Shown: positions 6,311-17,756, counted from the stretch's first letter. The stretch is 20,000 bases of DNA from an uncultured virus (IMG/VR IMGVR_UViG_3300025128_000023) (IMGVR_UViG_3300025128_000023); one strand, 5' to 3'. Notes: generated by a model from the sequence alone, not told the origin. Made by a program: numbers and translations.

Positions 6311-6312
6311 TC

Positions 6313-6473
6313 TGTGTTGATTTAATTAAAGTTAATTTACTGACAATCAATACTTTATATTTATTTGTGTTGATTGTGTTGAAAATATGTTAAAAAATAT
6401 ATAGAATAAAAATATTAAAAAAATATTTATTCTGATGTGTGAAAAGTGAAATTTTTATAACACAATTAACACA
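6313..6473. repeat. origin-like element 1: inverted pairs of TGTGTT(G/A)A repeats around an AT-rich spacer, with an IHF-consensus site
   Basis: TGTGTTGATTGTGTTG (6366-6381) inverted to TAACACAATTAACACA (6458-6473); AATCAATACTTTA (6345-6357) matches WATCAANNNNTTR. Confidence 0.6.
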
Positions 6474-6479
6474 AGATGC

Positions 6480-6503
6480 AAAAAAAAGGGGAGATTACTC
6501 CCC
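6480..6503 (-). terminator. intrinsic terminator downstream of the SSB-like gene
   Basis: minus strand GGGGAG-TAAT-CTCCCC-TTTTTTTT. Confidence 0.85.
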
Positions 6504-6537
6504 AATTCATTGCACGCCTTTCGACTACCAAACAATC

Positions 6538-11322: not shown

Positions 11323-11451
11323 TTAAATTGTTATACCTAAAAAGAATACTGCATAAGACATATACACAATGCCAAAGCATGCTAATGTTCCCAAGATCCA
11401 AGCTACTCCCATAAAGAAGTAGTGTGTAATAATACTGATTTGATTTTTCAT
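11323..11451 (-). CDS. small membrane protein (42 aa)
   Basis: Manual ORF MKNQISIITHYFFMGVAWILGTLACFGIVYMSYAVFFLGITI; starts 24 nt after the predicted HH-C cut. Confidence 0.6.
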   Translation of the reverse strand: MKNQISIITHYFFMGVAWILGTLACFGIVYMSYAVFFLGITI

Positions 11452-11470
11452 AAATTTAATTTTTAATTAT

Positions 11471-11547
11471 ACATTGACTTTCATTTGAAGGGGAGGCAAC
11501 CTCCCCCATTTAAGTTTCGCCTTGCTCTCAAAGGCTCATCAGAATGT
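11471..11547 (-). ncRNA. type I hammerhead ribozyme (HH-C)
   Basis: ACAUU-CUGAUGA-GCCUU(UGAGAGC)AAGGC-GAA-ACUU[AAAUGGGGGAGGUUGCCUCCCCUUCAAAUGA]AAGU-C^AAUGU; intact core and GUC site, cut between 11476 and 11475. Confidence 0.9.
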
Positions 11548-11549
11548 TT

Positions 11550-11693
11550 CTAATCGTAAAATTTGTGACCTTGATTCTCGTGCCAACTATTAAAGGCATT
11601 TGGATATTCTCTCATCACATAGTTGTGAAGGTCCATCAACTCCTCGATTTCTTGTATCAATTCTTTTTTACTCATCTTTTTATAGTAATTCAT
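11550..11693 (-). CDS. small hypothetical protein (47 aa)
   Basis: Manual ORF MNYYKKMSKKELIQEIEELMDLHNYVMREYPNAFNSWHENQGHKFYD; stop 2 nt before HH-C. Confidence 0.6.
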   Translation of the reverse strand: MNYYKKMSKKELIQEIEELMDLHNYVMREYPNAFNSWHENQGHKFYD

Positions 11694-11703
11694 ATTTATA
11701 GTT

Positions 11704-11928
11704 TTAAAATAATTCTTCTTGTGTTTTTTCCCACTTATCTATCTCAGATCTGATCTGAGATTCTTGATCAAGAATATCTTTACAATATTCTATCAAGTCT
11801 TTTAGTGATTCTATTTCACTATCGGAGGTTGTTTCATAGTCTATGAAGTCTCCATCAAGAATTGCATTTGCACAATCCTCTAAATCCATTGCAGTATTTT
11901 CAAATCTGCAGTAACTCATATTTGCCAT
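11704..11928 (-). CDS. small acidic phage protein
   Basis: MANMSYCRFENT..DL.DC N-terminus, very D/E rich. Confidence 0.7.
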   Translation of the reverse strand: MANMSYCRFENTAMDLEDCANAILDGDFIDYETTSDSEIESLKDLIEYCKDILDQESQIRSEIDKWEKTQEELF

Positions 11929-11929
11929 A

Positions 11930-12592
11930 TTATTTATTTATTAAATTGATTATTTTTTCACTTGCTAACATTACCTCCTCACATAGTTGTGAAGGGATTT
12001 TGCTTTTGTCATAATAGGATTTGATTCCTTGTGTTCCAGTCTGTGAGCCTCTTGGTGCACTTTGGTGGCAAGAGTCTCCATTCTTACACATTGGTTTACT
12101 TACCCATAATGGATTGTTATTCCATATGTCAGTTGGTTTCATTCTTGTATCTCCATACTGACAATAGGTAACTCCATTTAGTTTCCAAGCCTTATTGAAA
12201 TGGTTTTCCCATTTAGGATATTTTCTCATTTTTCCACGAGGGTTCTCCACATACCAAACAAGGTTTGGATTCAAGGTCTGAAAATGTTTTATGATTTCAA
12301 GAGTCTTCTCTAACATTGCAACACCTTTCTTTGCATTGTCTGTTTTAGGTGTGAAGACTTCTCCCTTTACCCAATGCCTTCCAATACTTGCCACACTAAA
12401 TGATTCACAAGGTGGAGATGCCCAAATCATATTTGGAATAAAAGGCACTTTGTTCACATCAAACTCCATTATGTCAACTACATAATTGGTGTTTGGAAAA
12501 TCATTGAAGTCGGAGGAGAACACATTATGTCCTCTCTCCTCTCCAATTTTGCCGATGCTTCGGCTACCACTAAATAATTCTAATACATTCAT
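11930..12592 (-). CDS. short C5-cytosine methyltransferase-like protein
   Basis: LELFSG (I), WASPPC (IV), VENP (VI), YCQYG...KPTDIW; no long TRD. Confidence 0.8.
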   Translation of the reverse strand: MNVLELFSGSRSIGKIGEERGHNVFSSDFNDFPNTNYVVDIMEFDVNKVPFIPNMIWASPPCESFSVASIGRHWVKGEVFTPKTDNAKKGVAMLEKTLEIIKHFQTLNPNLVWYVENPRGKMRKYPKWENHFNKAWKLNGVTYCQYGDTRMKPTDIWNNNPLWVSKPMCKNGDSCHQSAPRGSQTGTQGIKSYYDKSKIPSQLCEEVMLASEKIINLINK

Positions 12593-12595
12593 AGT

Positions 12596-12925
12596 TTATT
12601 GGTTTATCATATCAACTTTTATTTTGAACTGAGATATAAGTAAATGTTCTATCTCATCATATTTATTATTGAAGAAATCTTGTGCCTCTTCAGTATAGTT
12701 ATATGATTGTTCAGATTCATTCCACACTGATTCTTTGTGGTTAAATTTCTCGGCAGTTATTTCTGATGTTATATCACAAACAACTTGCAAGAAAATAGAG
12801 TTAGGAATTATTTGACAATTAAAATATAATTCCATTGTGTCAAGAAATTCTTGCTTATTGATTTTATCATTATCATACTCATCAAGTAGATTATGAAATG
12901 TTAATAAATTAAATTTTTCAATCAT
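12596..12925 (-). CDS. hypothetical acidic protein
   Basis: 109 aa ORF starting 27 nt after the predicted HH-B cut. Confidence 0.7.
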   Translation of the reverse strand: MIEKFNLLTFHNLLDEYDNDKINKQEFLDTMELYFNCQIIPNSIFLQVVCDITSEITAEKFNHKESVWNESEQSYNYTEEAQDFFNNKYDEIEHLLISQFKIKVDMINQ

Positions 12926-12945
12926 TTTTTTTAATTTTTAAGTTT

Positions 12946-13012
12946 AGACATTGACACCTCCAAAAGATCCTATGGAGGTGTTTCGGACTATGAGTCCATC
13001 ATCAGAATGCCT
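12946..13012 (-). ncRNA. type I hammerhead ribozyme (HH-B)
   Basis: AGGCAUU-CUGAUGA-U-GGACU(CAU)AGUCC-GAA-ACACCUCCA(UAGGAUCUUU)UGGAGGUGU-C^AAUGUCU; cut between 12953 and 12952. Confidence 0.92.
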
Positions 13013-13611
13013 CAAATTACATAGATGATGTCTCCTTTATTTGTCTTATAGTTATAGTGTAGCATTGCCCCTCCATCATTTCCTTCATCATCCATTTGAG
13101 GAATTAAACAAGTCTTGTTGTCTAACTCTAATACAAGTGGACTATAATTCCAACCCATATTGCCACATTCAGAGGGTTGAAGATATCTAACTTTAGTTAT
13201 CTTTCTACCTACTAAATGAGCCCATTTGTTTTCGTGCATTTCTCTTGTTCTTTTTGCCTCTATTTTATTTCTCAATTCTTCGGTAAGTACAGACATATCA
13301 ACATCAGATTCTCTCCTTCTTCTTGTCTGCTCATCTCTTTGGTTTCTTGCCTCTCTTCTTTTCTTTAACCAACCTTTTCTATTGGCAACAAATAACCTTC
13401 CTTCATCAGTCATAGAATACAATCCTTTGTCTTCTCTTTGGATTAGATTTTGGCTTACCCACTCTTGAAGAGCATCGGCATAATAGCCTTGTCTAACCAC
13501 ATATGTTTCCAGTTTATTACCTTGTGCAATCCAAATTTGTTTTTGGATATCTTGTCTTGTGAAAGTCCCCTCAACTTTTGAGAGTGCTTTAATTACTTTT
13601 GTTTTTATCAT
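13012..13611 (-). CDS. hypothetical two-domain protein (possible N-terminal winged helix)
   Basis: N-terminal ...LIQREDKGLYSMTDEG (wing-like), charged linker, C-terminal LVGRKITKVRYL...DDEGNDGGA. Confidence 0.7.
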   Translation of the reverse strand: MIKTKVIKALSKVEGTFTRQDIQKQIWIAQGNKLETYVVRQGYYADALQEWVSQNLIQREDKGLYSMTDEGRLFVANRKGWLKKRREARNQRDEQTRRRRESDVDMSVLTEELRNKIEAKRTREMHENKWAHLVGRKITKVRYLQPSECGNMGWNYSPLVLELDNKTCLIPQMDDEGNDGGAMLHYNYKTNKGDIIYVI

Positions 13612-13645
13612 AATTATTTATTTAGTGTTAAAATTAATTTCGTTT

Positions 13646-13691
13646 TCTACCACCAAAACCCCACTATTTTCATAGTGAGGCATTAGGAGGT
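13646..13691 (-). ncRNA. unrecognised structured RNA motif, copy 1
   Basis: ACCUCC-UAAU-GCCUCACUAU-GAAA-AUAGUGGGGU-UUU-GGUGGU-AGA. Confidence 0.55.
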
Positions 13692-13700
13692 TTTTGAGGT

Positions 13701-14033
13701 TTATATCTCTTCATTATACATCCAATCACAATACATTGTTTTCGGAGGTTTATTCATATGTTTTGATGTTTGCAATCCATCTTGAAAGCCCTTTTCCCAC
13801 TCCACAATATTATAGTTATGTGCAGAGTCATTTCCTTGTTCAATCTCATTTAAATAATATTGTTCTTCCTTTGAACTGGCTTCAATGTTTTCATCAATTC
13901 TTTTGTTTTGTGCCTCTAAGATGAAGTTATAAAAGCCCATAGCCATAATAAATTCCTCTTCATCTTGGTTGTTTCTTTCTTCTACTTTAGCATAATATTG
14001 CTCCCATAGTAAGTTGAAATCTAAATCTTTCAT
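13701..14033 (-). CDS. hypothetical acidic protein
   Basis: 110 aa ORF starting 26 nt after the predicted HH-A cut. Confidence 0.7.
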   Translation of the reverse strand: MKDLDFNLLWEQYYAKVEERNNQDEEEFIMAMGFYNFILEAQNKRIDENIEASSKEEQYYLNEIEQGNDSAHNYNIVEWEKGFQDGLQTSKHMNKPPKTMYCDWMYNEEI

Positions 14034-14053
14034 TTTAATTGTTTTTTAGTGTT

Positions 14054-14115
14054 AAATCTGACACCGAAAAAATCGGTGTTTCGTAGGTGTTTAAACCTTT
14101 ACTCATCGGAGATTT
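14054..14115 (-). ncRNA. type I hammerhead ribozyme with U4C core variant (HH-A)
   Basis: AAAUCU-CCGAUGA-GU(AA)AGGU(UUAAAC)ACCUAC-GAA-ACACCGA(UUUUU)UCGGUGU-C^AGAUUU; cut between 14060 and 14059. Confidence 0.8.
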
Positions 14116-14116
14116 T

Positions 14117-14605
14117 TTAACTTCTTTCAATTATTTCATCCTCGACTTCTTTTATTAGTTCTTCGGTTATTCTTTGCCCTCTAAAATCACAGATGGCTTT
14201 GAGATTATACATCAATTCTTGCCCTCTCCAATATGCATAATGATTTACTAATTTTTCGGCATTGTCAAAGGTGTTGTTTATCTCTCCAAAGTTTTCTTTT
14301 TCTTGCTCTTGGCAATATGTAATTAAATCGAATGTATTTAGATTATTTTCTTTTATAAATTGCTCGGCTTGATAATAGCCAATAATAAAATAATCTTCAT
14401 TAAATAAATGATGGTGCAAGTCATCAAAATATTGCCCCTCATAATTTTCGATATTATCGGCAATATGATTAATTAAATCTAAGTCGGCTTCTTGTGTGTG
14501 TGCATTCATATTAATTGTTGTTTGTGTTGGTTCTACTTTTGGAAATCTTTTTGCTATATATTTTTTTAGCTCTTCCCCTTTTAATTCTGTTGTTAAATTA
14601 CTCAT
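14117..14605 (-). CDS. acidic early protein, possibly Ocr-like antirestriction / DNA mimic
   Basis: First sizeable gene of the operon; acidic; DDLHHHLFNEDYFIIGYYQA...ENFGE...EKLVNHYAY, loosely resembling Ocr (DDLH). Confidence 0.45.
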   Translation of the reverse strand: MSNLTTELKGEELKKYIAKRFPKVEPTQTTINMNAHTQEADLDLINHIADNIENYEGQYFDDLHHHLFNEDYFIIGYYQAEQFIKENNLNTFDLITYCQEQEKENFGEINNTFDNAEKLVNHYAYWRGQELMYNLKAICDFRGQRITEELIKEVEDEIIERS

Positions 14606-14697: not shown

Positions 14698-14739
14698 AAT
14701 GTGTTATAATTAAGTTTTAATTAATTTCTATTTCTGTTC

Positions 14740-14747
14740 CAAAACTA
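14740..14747 (-). promoter_or_regulatory. Bacteroidota -7 element of the putative early promoter
   Basis: TAGTTTTG on the minus strand, exact TAnnTTTG, upstream of the first minus-strand ORF; no clear -33 TTTG. Confidence 0.55.
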
Positions 14748-14849: not shown

Positions 14850-15150
14850 ATGGGGTTAATTTGTTTGGGTTTTGTGGGTGTCGGTGTGGGGTTAAGAGAT
14901 TCCTCTCTGTGTTTGTGTGGGGTGTAAGTGGGGGAAGGTGGGAGAATGGGGGAAGGTTAGCCGATAATGAGAGGGAAGGAGAGCAACAACAAGAGCAGAC
15001 AAGAGGAGAAGGGAGGAGAGGCAAGGAGGAGGAGGGCAAAAGTTGAAAAAGTTGCAGAAAAAATTTTAAATAGTCGAGGGGGTAGGCAAAAAAAATCGGT
15101 TTTCGATTGGGGGGGTGGCGACTGTAAACCCATATATAACCCTCAACCCC
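14850..15150 (+). other. G/purine-rich non-coding strand-switch region with a G-quadruplex motif (14919-14952)
   Basis: GGGG-TGTAAGT-GGGGG-AAGGT-GGG-AGAAT-GGGGG; long A/G tract at about 14970-15060. Confidence 0.55.
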
Positions 15151-15181
15151 TATGTATCTGAACACATAAAAATATTTTTAG

Positions 15182-15189
15182 TATCTTTG
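15182..15189 (+). promoter_or_regulatory. Bacteroidota -7 promoter element
   Basis: TATCTTTG, 15 nt before ATG 15205. Confidence 0.55.
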
Positions 15190-15204
15190 TTCAAAACGAA
15201 AGAC

Positions 15205-15420
15205 ATGGCAATGAAAAACGCAACATACTTTAACAATGGTCTTTATATAAAAGATGGCAGATTGGTAAACTACCAAATGGATCCAGGAATGACTGGAATT
15301 AGCCAAGCATCATTGTATAGAAAACAAATGAAAAAACAATATAAGATAGATTGTATCGCAGATGGTATCGAAAGAGCCAAGATGAGAATGGATGGCGATA
15401 AAAATATCTTTGAGTATTAA
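15205..15420 (+). CDS. hypothetical protein (71 aa; start revised from 15115)
   Basis: MAMKNATYFNNGLYIKDGRLVN...; own promoter element and terminator. Confidence 0.65.
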   Translation: MAMKNATYFNNGLYIKDGRLVNYQMDPGMTGISQASLYRKQMKKQYKIDCIADGIERAKMRMDGDKNIFEY

Positions 15421-15456: not shown

Positions 15457-15488
15457 GAGAGAGGTTCTAATGAACCTCTTTTCTTTTT
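15457..15488 (+). terminator. intrinsic terminator
   Basis: AGAGGTTC-TAAT-GAACCTCT followed by TTTCTTTTT. Confidence 0.8.
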
Positions 15489-15744: not shown

Positions 15745-17382
15745 ATGAGCAACCAAGGATATATCCCTAAAGACTTAACCTTTGATAGCAAAGGCAGACA
15801 AAAGCTAATTGAAGGAATCACCAAAATTTCCAAAGCAGTTAAGAGTACACTCGGCCCACGCGGGAAGACAGTGTTAATAGAATCCCCTGATCACTTAGGA
15901 GGAATTACAATTACTAAGGATGGAGTGACTGTTGCTAAAAGTATTTACTTAGACGATCCAGTTGAGAACCTATCAATTCAAATGATGAAGGATGCAGCCA
16001 ACCGAACCGCAAGTGTTGCAGGTGATGGGACAACAACTGCTATTGTTTTGACTGAGGCTTTGATAAAAGCTGGTAACATTCACATTACTCCCGATATGAA
16101 TACCACTGAAGTGATTCGACACATAAACAAAGTCAGTGAGTATATACTTTCAGTATTGAAACGAAGAGCAGTCGATGTAGATGACAAAGCATTAGTAGAG
16201 GTTGCAAGTATATCAGCTAACAATGATGTAGAGATTGGTGAGATAATTAGTAAAGCATATGAAAAAGTTGGGAAGCATGGAATCGTTACAGTTGAAAAGT
16301 CTATGACTTCGGAAACATATGCGGAAGTTACTAATGGAATTAAAGTAGATAGAGGATATACATCCAACCTATTTATAAACGACCAAAGAAAAGATGAATG
16401 TATACTTGAAGATGTAAAAGTTTTAGTGTGTGATACTGAGATTAGCAACATACTACAAATTGAAACTATACTTAAACCAATCATTCAACAAAATCAAAAG
16501 CTACTTATCATTGGACAATGCTCACAAAATGTAATAAACACTTTGGCCGCGAATGTTGTTCGTAATGGCTTGAAGCTATGTAATATTATTCCACCAAACT
16601 TTGGATATAAGAAAAATGAATTAATGCAAGACATTGCAGTATCAGTAGGTGCTAAGTATTTTTCAGAATCTACTGGTGATGACTTGAGTTTGATTACACC
16701 CAACGACCTGGGATATGCAGATAAAATTATTGTAGGTAAAGAATCATCAGTAATAATTAAACACAATCAACTTACTGAAGAAATAAAACAAAGAATAGAA
16801 GAACTAAAAGAACAACAAGAAAACACAAAGCATAATGAAGAAAAGAAATTTATCAATGAAAGGATCGCAAGTCTTAGTGGTGCAATTGGTTGTATTTATG
16901 TTGGAGGTAACAGTGATGTAGAACAAAAAGAAAAATTTGACCGAGTCGATGACTCGGTATGCGCTGTCAAATCTGCACTTGATGAAGGTATCATCGCGGG
17001 TGGAGGAATAGCCTTGTGGGAAATTGCCGATGGACTTGGTGGAGTTGCACCTTTAGATAAAGACAAGGAAGCATCTAAAGAAGAAAAGGTTGCATACCAC
17101 ATAATGCATGAAACTATAAGAACCCCTTTAATTCAGATATTAGAAAATGCAGGTAAGGATTATAGTAAGATAACCAACGAGTTTAAAAAAGCAAAAAACA
17201 AAAACAAGATATGTTATGGATATGATGCCAAGAACGAAAAGTATGGAAACATGTTTAAGTTAGGAATCATCGATCCTTTAAAAGTAACCAAGAATGCATT
17301 AATAAATGCAGTCAGTGTAGCGACTACTATACTATCTACGAATGCTATAGTAACTCATGCACGAATAAACCAAAAGAAATAA
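15745..17382 (+). CDS. groEL: phage-encoded chaperonin GroEL
   Basis: STLGPRG, ITKDGVTVAK, AGDGTTTA, ERIASLSG, EGIIAGGG, GIIDPLKV; no GGM tail. Confidence 0.97.
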   Translation: MSNQGYIPKDLTFDSKGRQKLIEGITKISKAVKSTLGPRGKTVLIESPDHLGGITITKDGVTVAKSIYLDDPVENLSIQMMKDAANRTASVAGDGTTTAIVLTEALIKAGNIHITPDMNTTEVIRHINKVSEYILSVLKRRAVDVDDKALVEVASISANNDVEIGEIISKAYEKVGKHGIVTVEKSMTSETYAEVTNGIKVDRGYTSNLFINDQRKDECILEDVKVLVCDTEISNILQIETILKPIIQQNQKLLIIGQCSQNVINTLAANVVRNGLKLCNIIPPNFGYKKNELMQDIAVSVGAKYFSESTGDDLSLITPNDLGYADKIIVGKESSVIIKHNQLTEEIKQRIEELKEQQENTKHNEEKKFINERIASLSGAIGCIYVGGNSDVEQKEKFDRVDDSVCAVKSALDEGIIAGGGIALWEIADGLGGVAPLDKDKEASKEEKVAYHIMHETIRTPLIQILENAGKDYSKITNEFKKAKNKNKICYGYDAKNEKYGNMFKLGIIDPLKVTKNALINAVSVATTILSTNAIVTHARINQKK

Positions 17383-17383
17383 T

Positions 17384-17539
17384 ATGCCAATACACAATTA
17401 CATTTTCGACTCTTATAGACAAGAAGTAAAAAAGATTAACGAAGCTATTGAACTTTTAGAAAACCATGGATATATGGTTTATAATAAAGATAAAAAATAT
17501 GACTCCCATAGGAAAGTATATAGTAATTCAGAAGATTAA
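17384..17539 (+). CDS. small hypothetical protein (51 aa) between groEL and groES
   Basis: Manual ORF MPIHNYIFDSYRQEVKKINEAIELLENHGYMVYNKDKKYDSHRKVYSNSED, starting 1 nt after the groEL stop. Confidence 0.55.
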   Translation: MPIHNYIFDSYRQEVKKINEAIELLENHGYMVYNKDKKYDSHRKVYSNSED

Positions 17540-17756
17540 CGAAGAAAAGAAAACAAAGTCAGGACTGTTACTTTCATCAGAAGATGTTGAATCCTTTAGA
17601 TATCAAAAAGGACAAGTAGTAAAACCTGGTACTGATGTTTCTGTTATTAATGAAGGAGATGTTATATTCTATGATAAAGCCGCTGGTCACAGCATGTTTA
17701 TCAAGGATGAAACATTTACTATTATTTCTGAGAGAGATGTCGTTGTTGTTTTATAG
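17499..17756 (+). CDS. groES: co-chaperonin GroES
   Basis: MTPIGKYIVI...EEKKTKSGLLL (mobile loop)...GDVIFY...ISERDVVVVL; start revised to ATG 17499. Confidence 0.9.
   Translation: MTPIGKYIVIQKINEEKKTKSGLLLSSEDVESFRYQKGQVVKPGTDVSVINEGDVIFYDKAAGHSMFIKDETFTIISERDVVVVL

Follow-up and report, generated by a model that had tools for sequence, protein, structure and literature searches.

A 20,000-nt stretch of DNA from an uncultured virus in IMG/VR (IMGVR_UViG_3300025128_000023), referred to here in its full length as the window, contains three type I hammerhead elements, HH1, HH2 and HH3. Judged from the sequence and its relatives, the three are confirmed as genuine hammerhead motifs under selection, located on the coding strand in the early region of a phage, where they are clustered inside 2.65 kb and flank a two-gene block and a four-gene block (coordinates in Table 1). 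Here it is proposed that they are probably self-cleaving ribozymes, which would cut the nascent multi-gene early RNA and thereby uncouple neighbouring accessory genes in stability and translation. An earlier note on this DNA had described three type I hammerheads on the coding strand, each with C(U/C)GAUGA, GAAA, a GUC site and three stems; a descriptor scan returned exactly these three, all on the minus strand, and all of these parts were present when that strand was read.

Anatomy, model scores and covariation of the three hammerheads

Direct inspection of the minus strand between 11300 and 14300 for the hammerhead layout gave the same order in each element, with the 5′ strand of stem I followed by C(U/C)GAUGA, hairpin II, GAAA, hairpin III ending in U, a C, and the 3′ strand of stem I. 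The three-helix topology, in which stem I is open and stems II and III are closed by loops, is present in HH1, HH2 and HH3, as are the G12 A13 A14 core (GAAA, then stem III with an A-U closing pair) and the GUC site. The core C3 U4 G5 A6 N7 G8 A9 is complete in HH2 and HH3, and HH1 deviates from it at one position (C4). HH1 has a stem I of 6 bp, the core CCGAUGA, a stem II made of 3 bp, an AA bulge and another 3 bp, and a stem III of 6-7 bp. HH2 has a stem I of 6-7 bp, the core CUGAUGA with one extra U before stem II, a stem II of 5 bp and a stem III of 9 bp; the extra U after A9 is also found in many of the 42 viral type I sequences described below. HH3 contains a stem I of 5 bp, the core CUGAUGA, a stem II of 5 bp and a long stem III with an internal loop and only 4 basal pairs. 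As counted by the descriptor, stems I/II/III are 6/3/7 in HH1, 7/5/9 in HH2 and 5/5/4 in HH3, and the last two have a common stem I sequence (CAUU/AAUG). A tertiary contact of stem I with stem II, through their loops or a pseudoknot, gives hammerheads fast cleavage at physiological Mg2+. A partner of loop II for such a contact was looked for by eye, with no dedicated computation, in the flanks of HH1 and its homologues, where no convincing conserved complement was seen.

The descriptor called for the core, GAAA and a U-H site, together with a minimum of 4, 3 and 4 pairs in the stems, and was applied to both strands of the window. It gave three matches, compared with a mean of 0.007 per shuffled window, and only 2 of 300 first-order shuffles had any match. 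A retrieval pattern consisting of the core and the base of stem III, taken from HH1 and HH2, matched at least 123 stretches in IMG/VR; a complete descriptor hammerhead was found in 43 of the 80 loci fetched from these, and more than one in 9. A covariance model, R1, was made from an alignment (A1) of 42 distinct viral type I hammerheads, none of them from the window. With filters off, R1 scored HH2 at 43.5 bits (E 1.8e-12) and HH1 at 41.2 bits (E 1e-11), both values being inflated because the retrieval pattern came from the stem III of these two elements. HH3, which is without that stem III pattern, still reached 35.8 bits (E 6.5e-10), and the next best match in the window had 11.9 bits. The R1 alignments of the three elements cover the full model.

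Homologues of HH1 were found in three related loci, L185:98-159 (93% identical by blastn), L191:4034-4095 (80% including the leader) and L189:185-288. Together with HH1 they have a common 32-nt block, formed by the core and stem II, which differs solely at core position 4; the homologues have the canonical CUGAUGA core, a stem II identical to that of HH1, compensatory differences in stems I and III, and either GUC or GUA as the cleavage site. The genes flanking the HH1-type copies in the window, L185, L189 and L191 do not align with each other. An HH2-like copy (L234:3537-3598) has the same stem I as HH2 and a C-G to U-A change in stem II, and an HH3-like copy (L185:1873-1929) has the same stem I as HH3, a different stem II and a compact stem III. 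The selection on structure claimed in the earlier note is thus borne out, the homologues keeping the core and changing their stems by compensatory substitutions; conservation of the core in related genomes was a point on which the note had staked its proposal as a whole.

In an alignment of 14 hammerheads from the window and four relatives, 97.1% of the cells are standard pairs and 13 of the 15 pairs have changes on both sides, with 0 of 500 shuffles as high; because the sequences had been aligned by fitting to the model, these values favour the structure. In a slid control, with partners moved by 1-3 columns, pairing fell to 30-38%. The A15.1-U16.1 pair is invariant in the 14 aligned sequences. 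Across four other DNA data sets, a comparison of low power, the sole difference inside a ribozyme was 12990 A>T in loop II of HH2, seen in one run and near a contig end. HH1 was covered by one other DNA run, with no listed difference inside it, and the leader after HH3 had a 6-nt insertion behind 11454 in one DNA run (X19).

Position of the hammerheads in the window and in related phages

Each hammerhead of the window lies between a stop codon and a short leader that ends at an ATG. Between the upstream stop codon and the start of the model match there are 2 nt in HH1, 1 nt in HH2 and 2 nt in HH3, in agreement with the stop-codon adjacency noted earlier, and the 5′ end of HH2 overlaps the TGA stop of orf199. 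The distances from the predicted cuts to the next ATG (26, 27 and 24 nt) were recomputed and are identical to those first given. The A-rich leaders that had also been pointed out are present after each predicted cut, but they are not particular to the ribozymes, as they also precede genes without one (orf199 and orf74). Translation starts without a Shine-Dalgarno sequence are known from Bacteroidota, and the A-rich leaders, which lack such a sequence, fit starts of this type.

Relatives of the phage were collected in IMG/VR through the primase, and the best 80 of 186 loci were used (1.40 Mb). The descriptor, applied in three topologies, gave 55 matches, with 27 of the 80 loci contributing; type I accounts for 20 and type III for 35, and every match lies on the strand of the primase and upstream of that gene. 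R1 with default filters gave 15 matches in 11 of the 80 loci, which had the same strand and position without exception. With filters off, R1 was run on six loci and gave six matches in L189, two each in L191 and L185, one in L186 and none in L192 or L190. The densest array found is L189:185-3437, in a relative with a primase 75% identical to that of the window, where six type I hammerheads lie within 3.3 kb, each 19-29 nt before an ATG and one of them directly before a methyltransferase gene. The number of hammerheads per primase relative is 0 to 6.

The order of stop codon, ribozyme, leader and ATG recurs in this phage group; a survey of the junctions in related phages was among the checks proposed in the earlier note. 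Of the 20 type I hammerheads of the group, 19 have their cut 19-32 nt before the ATG, the exception being L234, with an ATG 1 nt after the cut and a second in-frame ATG at 25 nt; in 15 of 18 cases the upstream stop lies between -9 and +5 nt relative to the start of the ribozyme. Among the wider IMG/VR set of 42 type I hammerheads, a long-frame stop lies at most 15 nt from the ribozyme start in 39 (a count without control), an ATG-led open reading frame (ORF) starts at most 60 nt from the cut in 32, and the cut-to-ATG distance is 15-35 nt in 16, compared with 9.8% of random positions. The type III hammerheads of the relatives have their 3′ edge at a median of 21 nt before the ATG (at most 40 nt in 27 of 35), and the upstream stop is mostly 24-38 nt ahead of the ribozyme. 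In both topologies the start region directly follows the ribozyme, and the fragment that keeps the folded ribozyme differs.

In the first 5.3 kb of each of six more distant primase relatives (L213, L218, L231, L235, L247 and L251), at least three hammerheads are present. Most of these copies are compact type III elements of about 50 nt with very similar loops. L218 has two of type III and one of type I, and L213 likewise mixes both types. Several of the type III copies have an additional G/C-rich hairpin between the ribozyme and the ATG.

On protein-level maps of 13 of the primase-related loci, the genes for DnaA-HTH, orf131, Sak, exonuclease and primase form a conserved module without any ribozyme, and all hammerheads fall upstream of it, within a block of small genes that is variable. 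The genes after the relatives' type I hammerheads have no PHROG family in 15 of 17 cases, the other two being a methyltransferase and a member of a family of unknown function. Confinement to the variable block in all of the mapped loci, together with the position upstream of the primase in 55 of 55 cases, is also what would be seen if the main role of the ribozyme were to supply each frequently exchanged accessory gene with a standard start region independent of its neighbours, in the manner of the engineered insulator RiboJ, rather than to cut the message, and if it persisted only where genes are shuffled. That role would further agree with the 32-nt block of core and stem II (position 4 aside) standing beside non-homologous genes in the window, L185, L189 and L191, with the lack of PHROG families among the following genes, and with a ribozyme 3′ edge about 15-25 nt before the ATG in type I and type III alike, the type I cut-to-ATG distance including 5-6 nt of stem I. 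Genome compaction also explains this layout, however, as the ribozyme fills the gap and a start region needs about 20 free nt, and a start-region role overlaps transcript processing without excluding it; as the main role it is considered quite unlikely. The broader suggestion that in these marine Flavobacteriia-type phages the hammerhead serves the rapidly changing accessory genes of the early region as a portable start cassette, insulating them from their context, is speculative and rather unlikely; if true, the exchange of genes would be tied to that of ribozymes, and the main effect of the cut would be to free the Shine-Dalgarno-less leader from upstream sequence.

Proposed processing of the early transcript

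Under the proposed processing of the early RNA, each ribozyme would fold into the three-helix junction during synthesis of the multi-gene transcript and would cut itself in vivo by internal transesterification, on the 3′ side of the C in GUC (positions 14060, 12953 and 11476). On the upstream RNA, the folded ribozyme would remain as the 3′ end, with a 2′,3′-cyclic phosphate, and the downstream RNA would begin with a 5′-OH on an unstructured leader of 24-27 nt, an end chemistry expected from what is known of the hammerhead family. The net effect on expression would be that the stability and the translation start of each small accessory gene become independent of the upstream RNA. The structured 3′ ends predicted in the earlier note agree with the type I topology, but in the relatives with type III hammerheads, at junctions of the same kind, the folded ribozyme would stay with the downstream RNA, at its 5′ end.

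Several observations, in addition to the inflated scores of HH1 and HH2 and the fitting of the covariation alignment, weigh against this proposal. At gathering thresholds, Rfam gave no match in the whole window, and in the Rfam hammerhead search put forward earlier as a check, none of HH1-HH3 reached its cut-off. The alignments obtained are partial (21-28 bits, compared with cut-offs of 48.5-56.3): RF03152 (RAGATH-1-hammerhead) gave 21.7 bits for HH1 and 21.3 bits for HH2, with a cut-off of 56.3, and RF00008 (Hammerhead_3) gave 27.7 bits for the HH3 region in a permuted reading, with a cut-off of 48.5. RF00163 (Hammerhead_1) had no match in the window even at relaxed thresholds. The three families have the catalytic core, the three-helix junction and the GUC site in common with HH1-HH3. 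Because the scores are far under the gathering cut-offs, routine Rfam annotation misses these hammerheads, and the length of stems II and III is the likely reason for the low scores.

Single copies also have weak points. Core position 4 of HH1 is C, where at least 90% of the 42 model sequences have U, the natural exceptions with C4 being two of the 42 (L089 and L128); as the three homologues of HH1 all carry U4, the change from U to C is derived. Core changes in general lower hammerhead activity, according to the main text of PMC3088659, and HH1 may cleave slowly or be inactive owing to this change, as far as its sequence indicates. The hammerhead three-way junction is the minimum-energy fold of HH2 (z -2.76); in HH1 the hammerhead fold is the centroid and not the minimum-energy structure, and in HH3 it is neither, stem I and the basal stem III being weak. 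The same main text (PMC3088659) reports rare core variants and weak stems as natural, and describes weak stems III as common.

A further point concerns the continuity of the transcript. The early polycistron punctuated by hammerheads, as the earlier note saw it, is retained in that the ribozymes lie in the early array, but it is probably not one uninterrupted transcript, given a conserved hairpin and a promoter-like motif between HH1 and HH2 (Table 1). The hairpin has a fold z of -4.05, with 0 of 200 shuffles as stable, and is also found in L191, L192 and L193, at different places of the early region, where it is kept via compensatory changes and followed by the invariant UUUUGGUGGUA. It resembles a terminator, or else a regulatory RNA element of another kind; a search of 13600-13710 with Rfam gave nothing significant. 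Its conservation between HH1 and HH2 suggests that there would be more than one transcription unit. The promoter-like motif has two matches in the window, compared with 0.04 expected, each about 20-25 nt before an ATG, and it is rare among the relatives, with 5 matches in 1.40 Mb. The two copies are possible early promoters of the Bacteroidota type. If the hairpin is a terminator and the motifs are promoters, HH1 would belong to the first transcription unit, and HH2 and HH3 to the second.

DNA read depth peaks at the hairpin region (13612-13700) in all four runs compared, which suggests that the hairpin is common to many phages in those samples.

The distribution among close relatives also counts against the proposal. 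L192 is without a hammerhead by R1 with filters off, and MW202828.1, which has the same GroEL/early-region layout, is without one by the descriptors; because these two do without, the hammerheads are dispensable. The RF00163 search had no match in MW202828.1 or in the nearest virus record (G001), the latter not including the hammerhead region. In 55 viral loci with relatives of orf199 (about 407 kb), only one hammerhead was found, of type III, and no orthologous junctions. Patchy presence, with 0 to 6 copies per relative and close relatives without any, would suit relics or self-spreading sequences of little benefit to the phage, and the derived core change of HH1, as well as the weak stem I and basal stem III of HH3, could then mean that these two no longer cut. 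Such decaying or selfish elements are nevertheless very unlikely in view of the strict strand bias, with the coding strand carrying all 55, the strong compensatory covariation, the strict placement between stop codon and start region, and the single ribozyme variant, at a loop II position, in the four other DNA data sets (low power). Strand bias, covariation, placement and the near absence of variation point to continuing selection on the hammerheads.

The hammerhead pairs flank defined gene blocks, and the stem I shared by HH2 and HH3 (CAUU/AAUG), with the 5′-OH and 2′,3′-cyclic phosphate ends that suit RtcB-type ligases, would be compatible with release of the flanked RNA segments (14059 to 12953; 12952 to 11476) and their subsequent circularisation or ligation, as raised for other hammerheads in the main text of Perreault et al. 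2011 (PMC3088659). Spliced or circular products went undetected according to the same text, and a scan of 30 ORFs of the window revealed no recognisable ligase gene; this fate of the segments is considered extremely improbable. Hammerheads as homology linkers for recombination were also considered and set aside, as a crossover in the core would join unmatched stem I halves and the shared blocks are short.

The processing proposed here, by cuts between the cistrons of the early transcript, has a parallel in phage T7, whose early polycistron is cut by the host RNase III at structured intercistronic sites, with 5′-phosphate and 3′-OH ends as the result. In contrast to T7, the window RNA would cut itself and leave 5′-OH and cyclic phosphate ends. 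RiboJ, a synthetic hammerhead insulator, is placed just upstream of the translation start, removes variable upstream RNA and thereby makes expression uniform, with the ribozyme body staying on the downstream RNA. This body placement resembles the type III relatives and not the type I copies of the window.

Ribozyme processing of a multi-gene phage transcript, which the earlier note had put forward for this phage, had already been proposed and partly tested in the main text of Perreault et al. 2011 (PMC3088659), and its possible effect on stability and translation was taken up again in 2019 (PMC6765202). In the former, multiple hammerheads flank single prophage genes or short blocks whose gene identities vary; three tandem arrangements cleave in vitro, and the Agrobacterium tumefaciens triple around ardA does so also in vivo after cloning. 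The window is similar to those clusters in that several hammerheads lie near each other in phage DNA, all point the same way and border genes or short gene blocks whose identity varies, and differs from the prophage clusters described there in being an uncultured marine Flavobacteriia-type phage contig in which all three copies are of type I. The main text of PMC3088659 also covers the 'HHphage' of the haloviruses HF1/HF2, a hammerhead 13 nt before the first start codon of an early polycistron, with a mapped 5′ end at most 3 nt from the cut. As in the window, that hammerhead lies few nt upstream of a start codon in an early polycistronic transcript; unlike the window, it has an archaeal host and is a single ribozyme of an unusual, high-salt-dependent variant. 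Passages of the 2019 review (PMC6765202) state that processing could give transcripts differing in stability or translation efficiency, with a purpose still undefined, and describe the role of bacterial and phage hammerheads as unresolved.

The arrangement of hammerheads between phage genes has therefore been known since 2011, and the window adds no new principle. Its contribution is modest and consists in the description of a large group of marine phages whose early regions hold 0-6 ribozymes each, of both topologies and at a constant distance from the start codon, in the record of a natural U4C copy, and in a subfamily missed as a whole by the Rfam thresholds. The change of U4 to C in HH1 is not mentioned in the passages of PMC3088659 compared here, and neither the 19-32 nt cut-to-ATG spacing nor the confinement to a variable early block across a phage group was found stated in those passages. 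No paper on this phage group was found in the part of the literature on phage hammerheads and marine Bacteroidetes phages that was covered. The group offers natural comparisons with and without ribozymes in otherwise comparable early regions and, being well sampled, could serve to test the role of hammerheads if a cultivable member or a metatranscriptome were found.

Gene context and other features of the window

The stretch is present in 20 DNA runs, most of them labelled as marine metagenome, and a look for RNA runs containing it gave none. A minus-strand gene array extends from about 14700 down to about 300 and encodes small proteins without family matches, a 220-aa DNA methyltransferase-like protein, a DnaA-type helix-turn-helix (HTH) protein, the single-strand annealing protein Sak, an exonuclease, an 802-aa primase/helicase, a C5 cytosine methylase and an SNF2-type helicase. 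The named relatives of the primase belong to phages of Flavobacterium, Nonlabens, Polaribacter, Cellulophaga, Maribacter and Tenacibaculum, and the best named match is MW202828.1, an uncultured Caudoviricetes genome (68% identity). The source is thus a marine phage, probably with a host among the Flavobacteriia (Bacteroidota). The features around the hammerheads are given in Table 1; no relatives of orf162 were found in viral_contigs.

Table 1. Hammerheads, leaders, genes and putative signals in the early region of the window
Feature	Position	Strand	Description
Promoter-like motif, first copy	14719-14743	(-)	TTTGG, spacer, AAATTAATT; head of the minus-strand array
orf162	14117-14605	(-)	phrog_10208, unknown function; upstream of HH1
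HH1	14054-14115	(-)	type I hammerhead; predicted cut 14060/14059
HH1 leader	14034-14059	(-)	26 nt, A-rich, before the orf110 ATG (14033)
orf110	13701-14033	(-)	no family match; first gene after HH1
Terminator-like hairpin	13654-13681	(-)	10 bp, GAAA loop, then UUUU; between orf110 and orf199, i.e. between HH1 and HH2
Promoter-like motif, second copy	13632-13657	(-)	TTTGG, spacer, AAATTAATT; directly after the hairpin
orf199	13012-13611	(-)	upstream of HH2; C-terminal part widespread in viral contigs
HH2	12946-13013	(-)	type I hammerhead; predicted cut 12953/12952
HH2 leader	12926-12952	(-)	27 nt, A-rich, before the orf109 ATG (12925)
Four-gene block between HH2 and HH3	11550-12925	(-)	orf109; a 220-aa DNA methyltransferase-like protein (phrog_757); orf74 (phrog_8760); orf47
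HH3	11471-11547	(-)	type I hammerhead; predicted cut 11476/11475
HH3 leader	11452-11475	(-)	24 nt, A-rich, before the orf42 ATG (11451)
orf42	11323-11451	(-)	small hydrophobic ORF; first gene after HH3

Within the four-gene block, the segment 11870-11983 (start of orf74 and end of the methyltransferase gene) has a DNA depth 5-10x that of its flanks in four metagenome runs, with many contigs diverging on both sides, and appears to be common to many different phages in those samples.

The phage also encodes GroEL (545 aa) and GroES (96 aa) at 15745-17756 on the plus strand, divergent from the early array, in an arrangement like that of MW202828.1. Between the early array and GroEL lies a divergent region of 1.1 kb, which includes a C/T-rich stretch of about 250 nt on the minus strand (14860-15110), of low complexity and with no convincing gene. 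Adjoining this low-complexity stretch is a 101-aa ORF (15115-15420, plus strand), with a terminator-like hairpin behind it at 15457-15482. A gene-free gap of 227 nt (6311-6537) precedes the primase gene; it is partly conserved in relatives, and a 43-nt piece of it (6329-6371) has an 88% match to L191:1674-1715.

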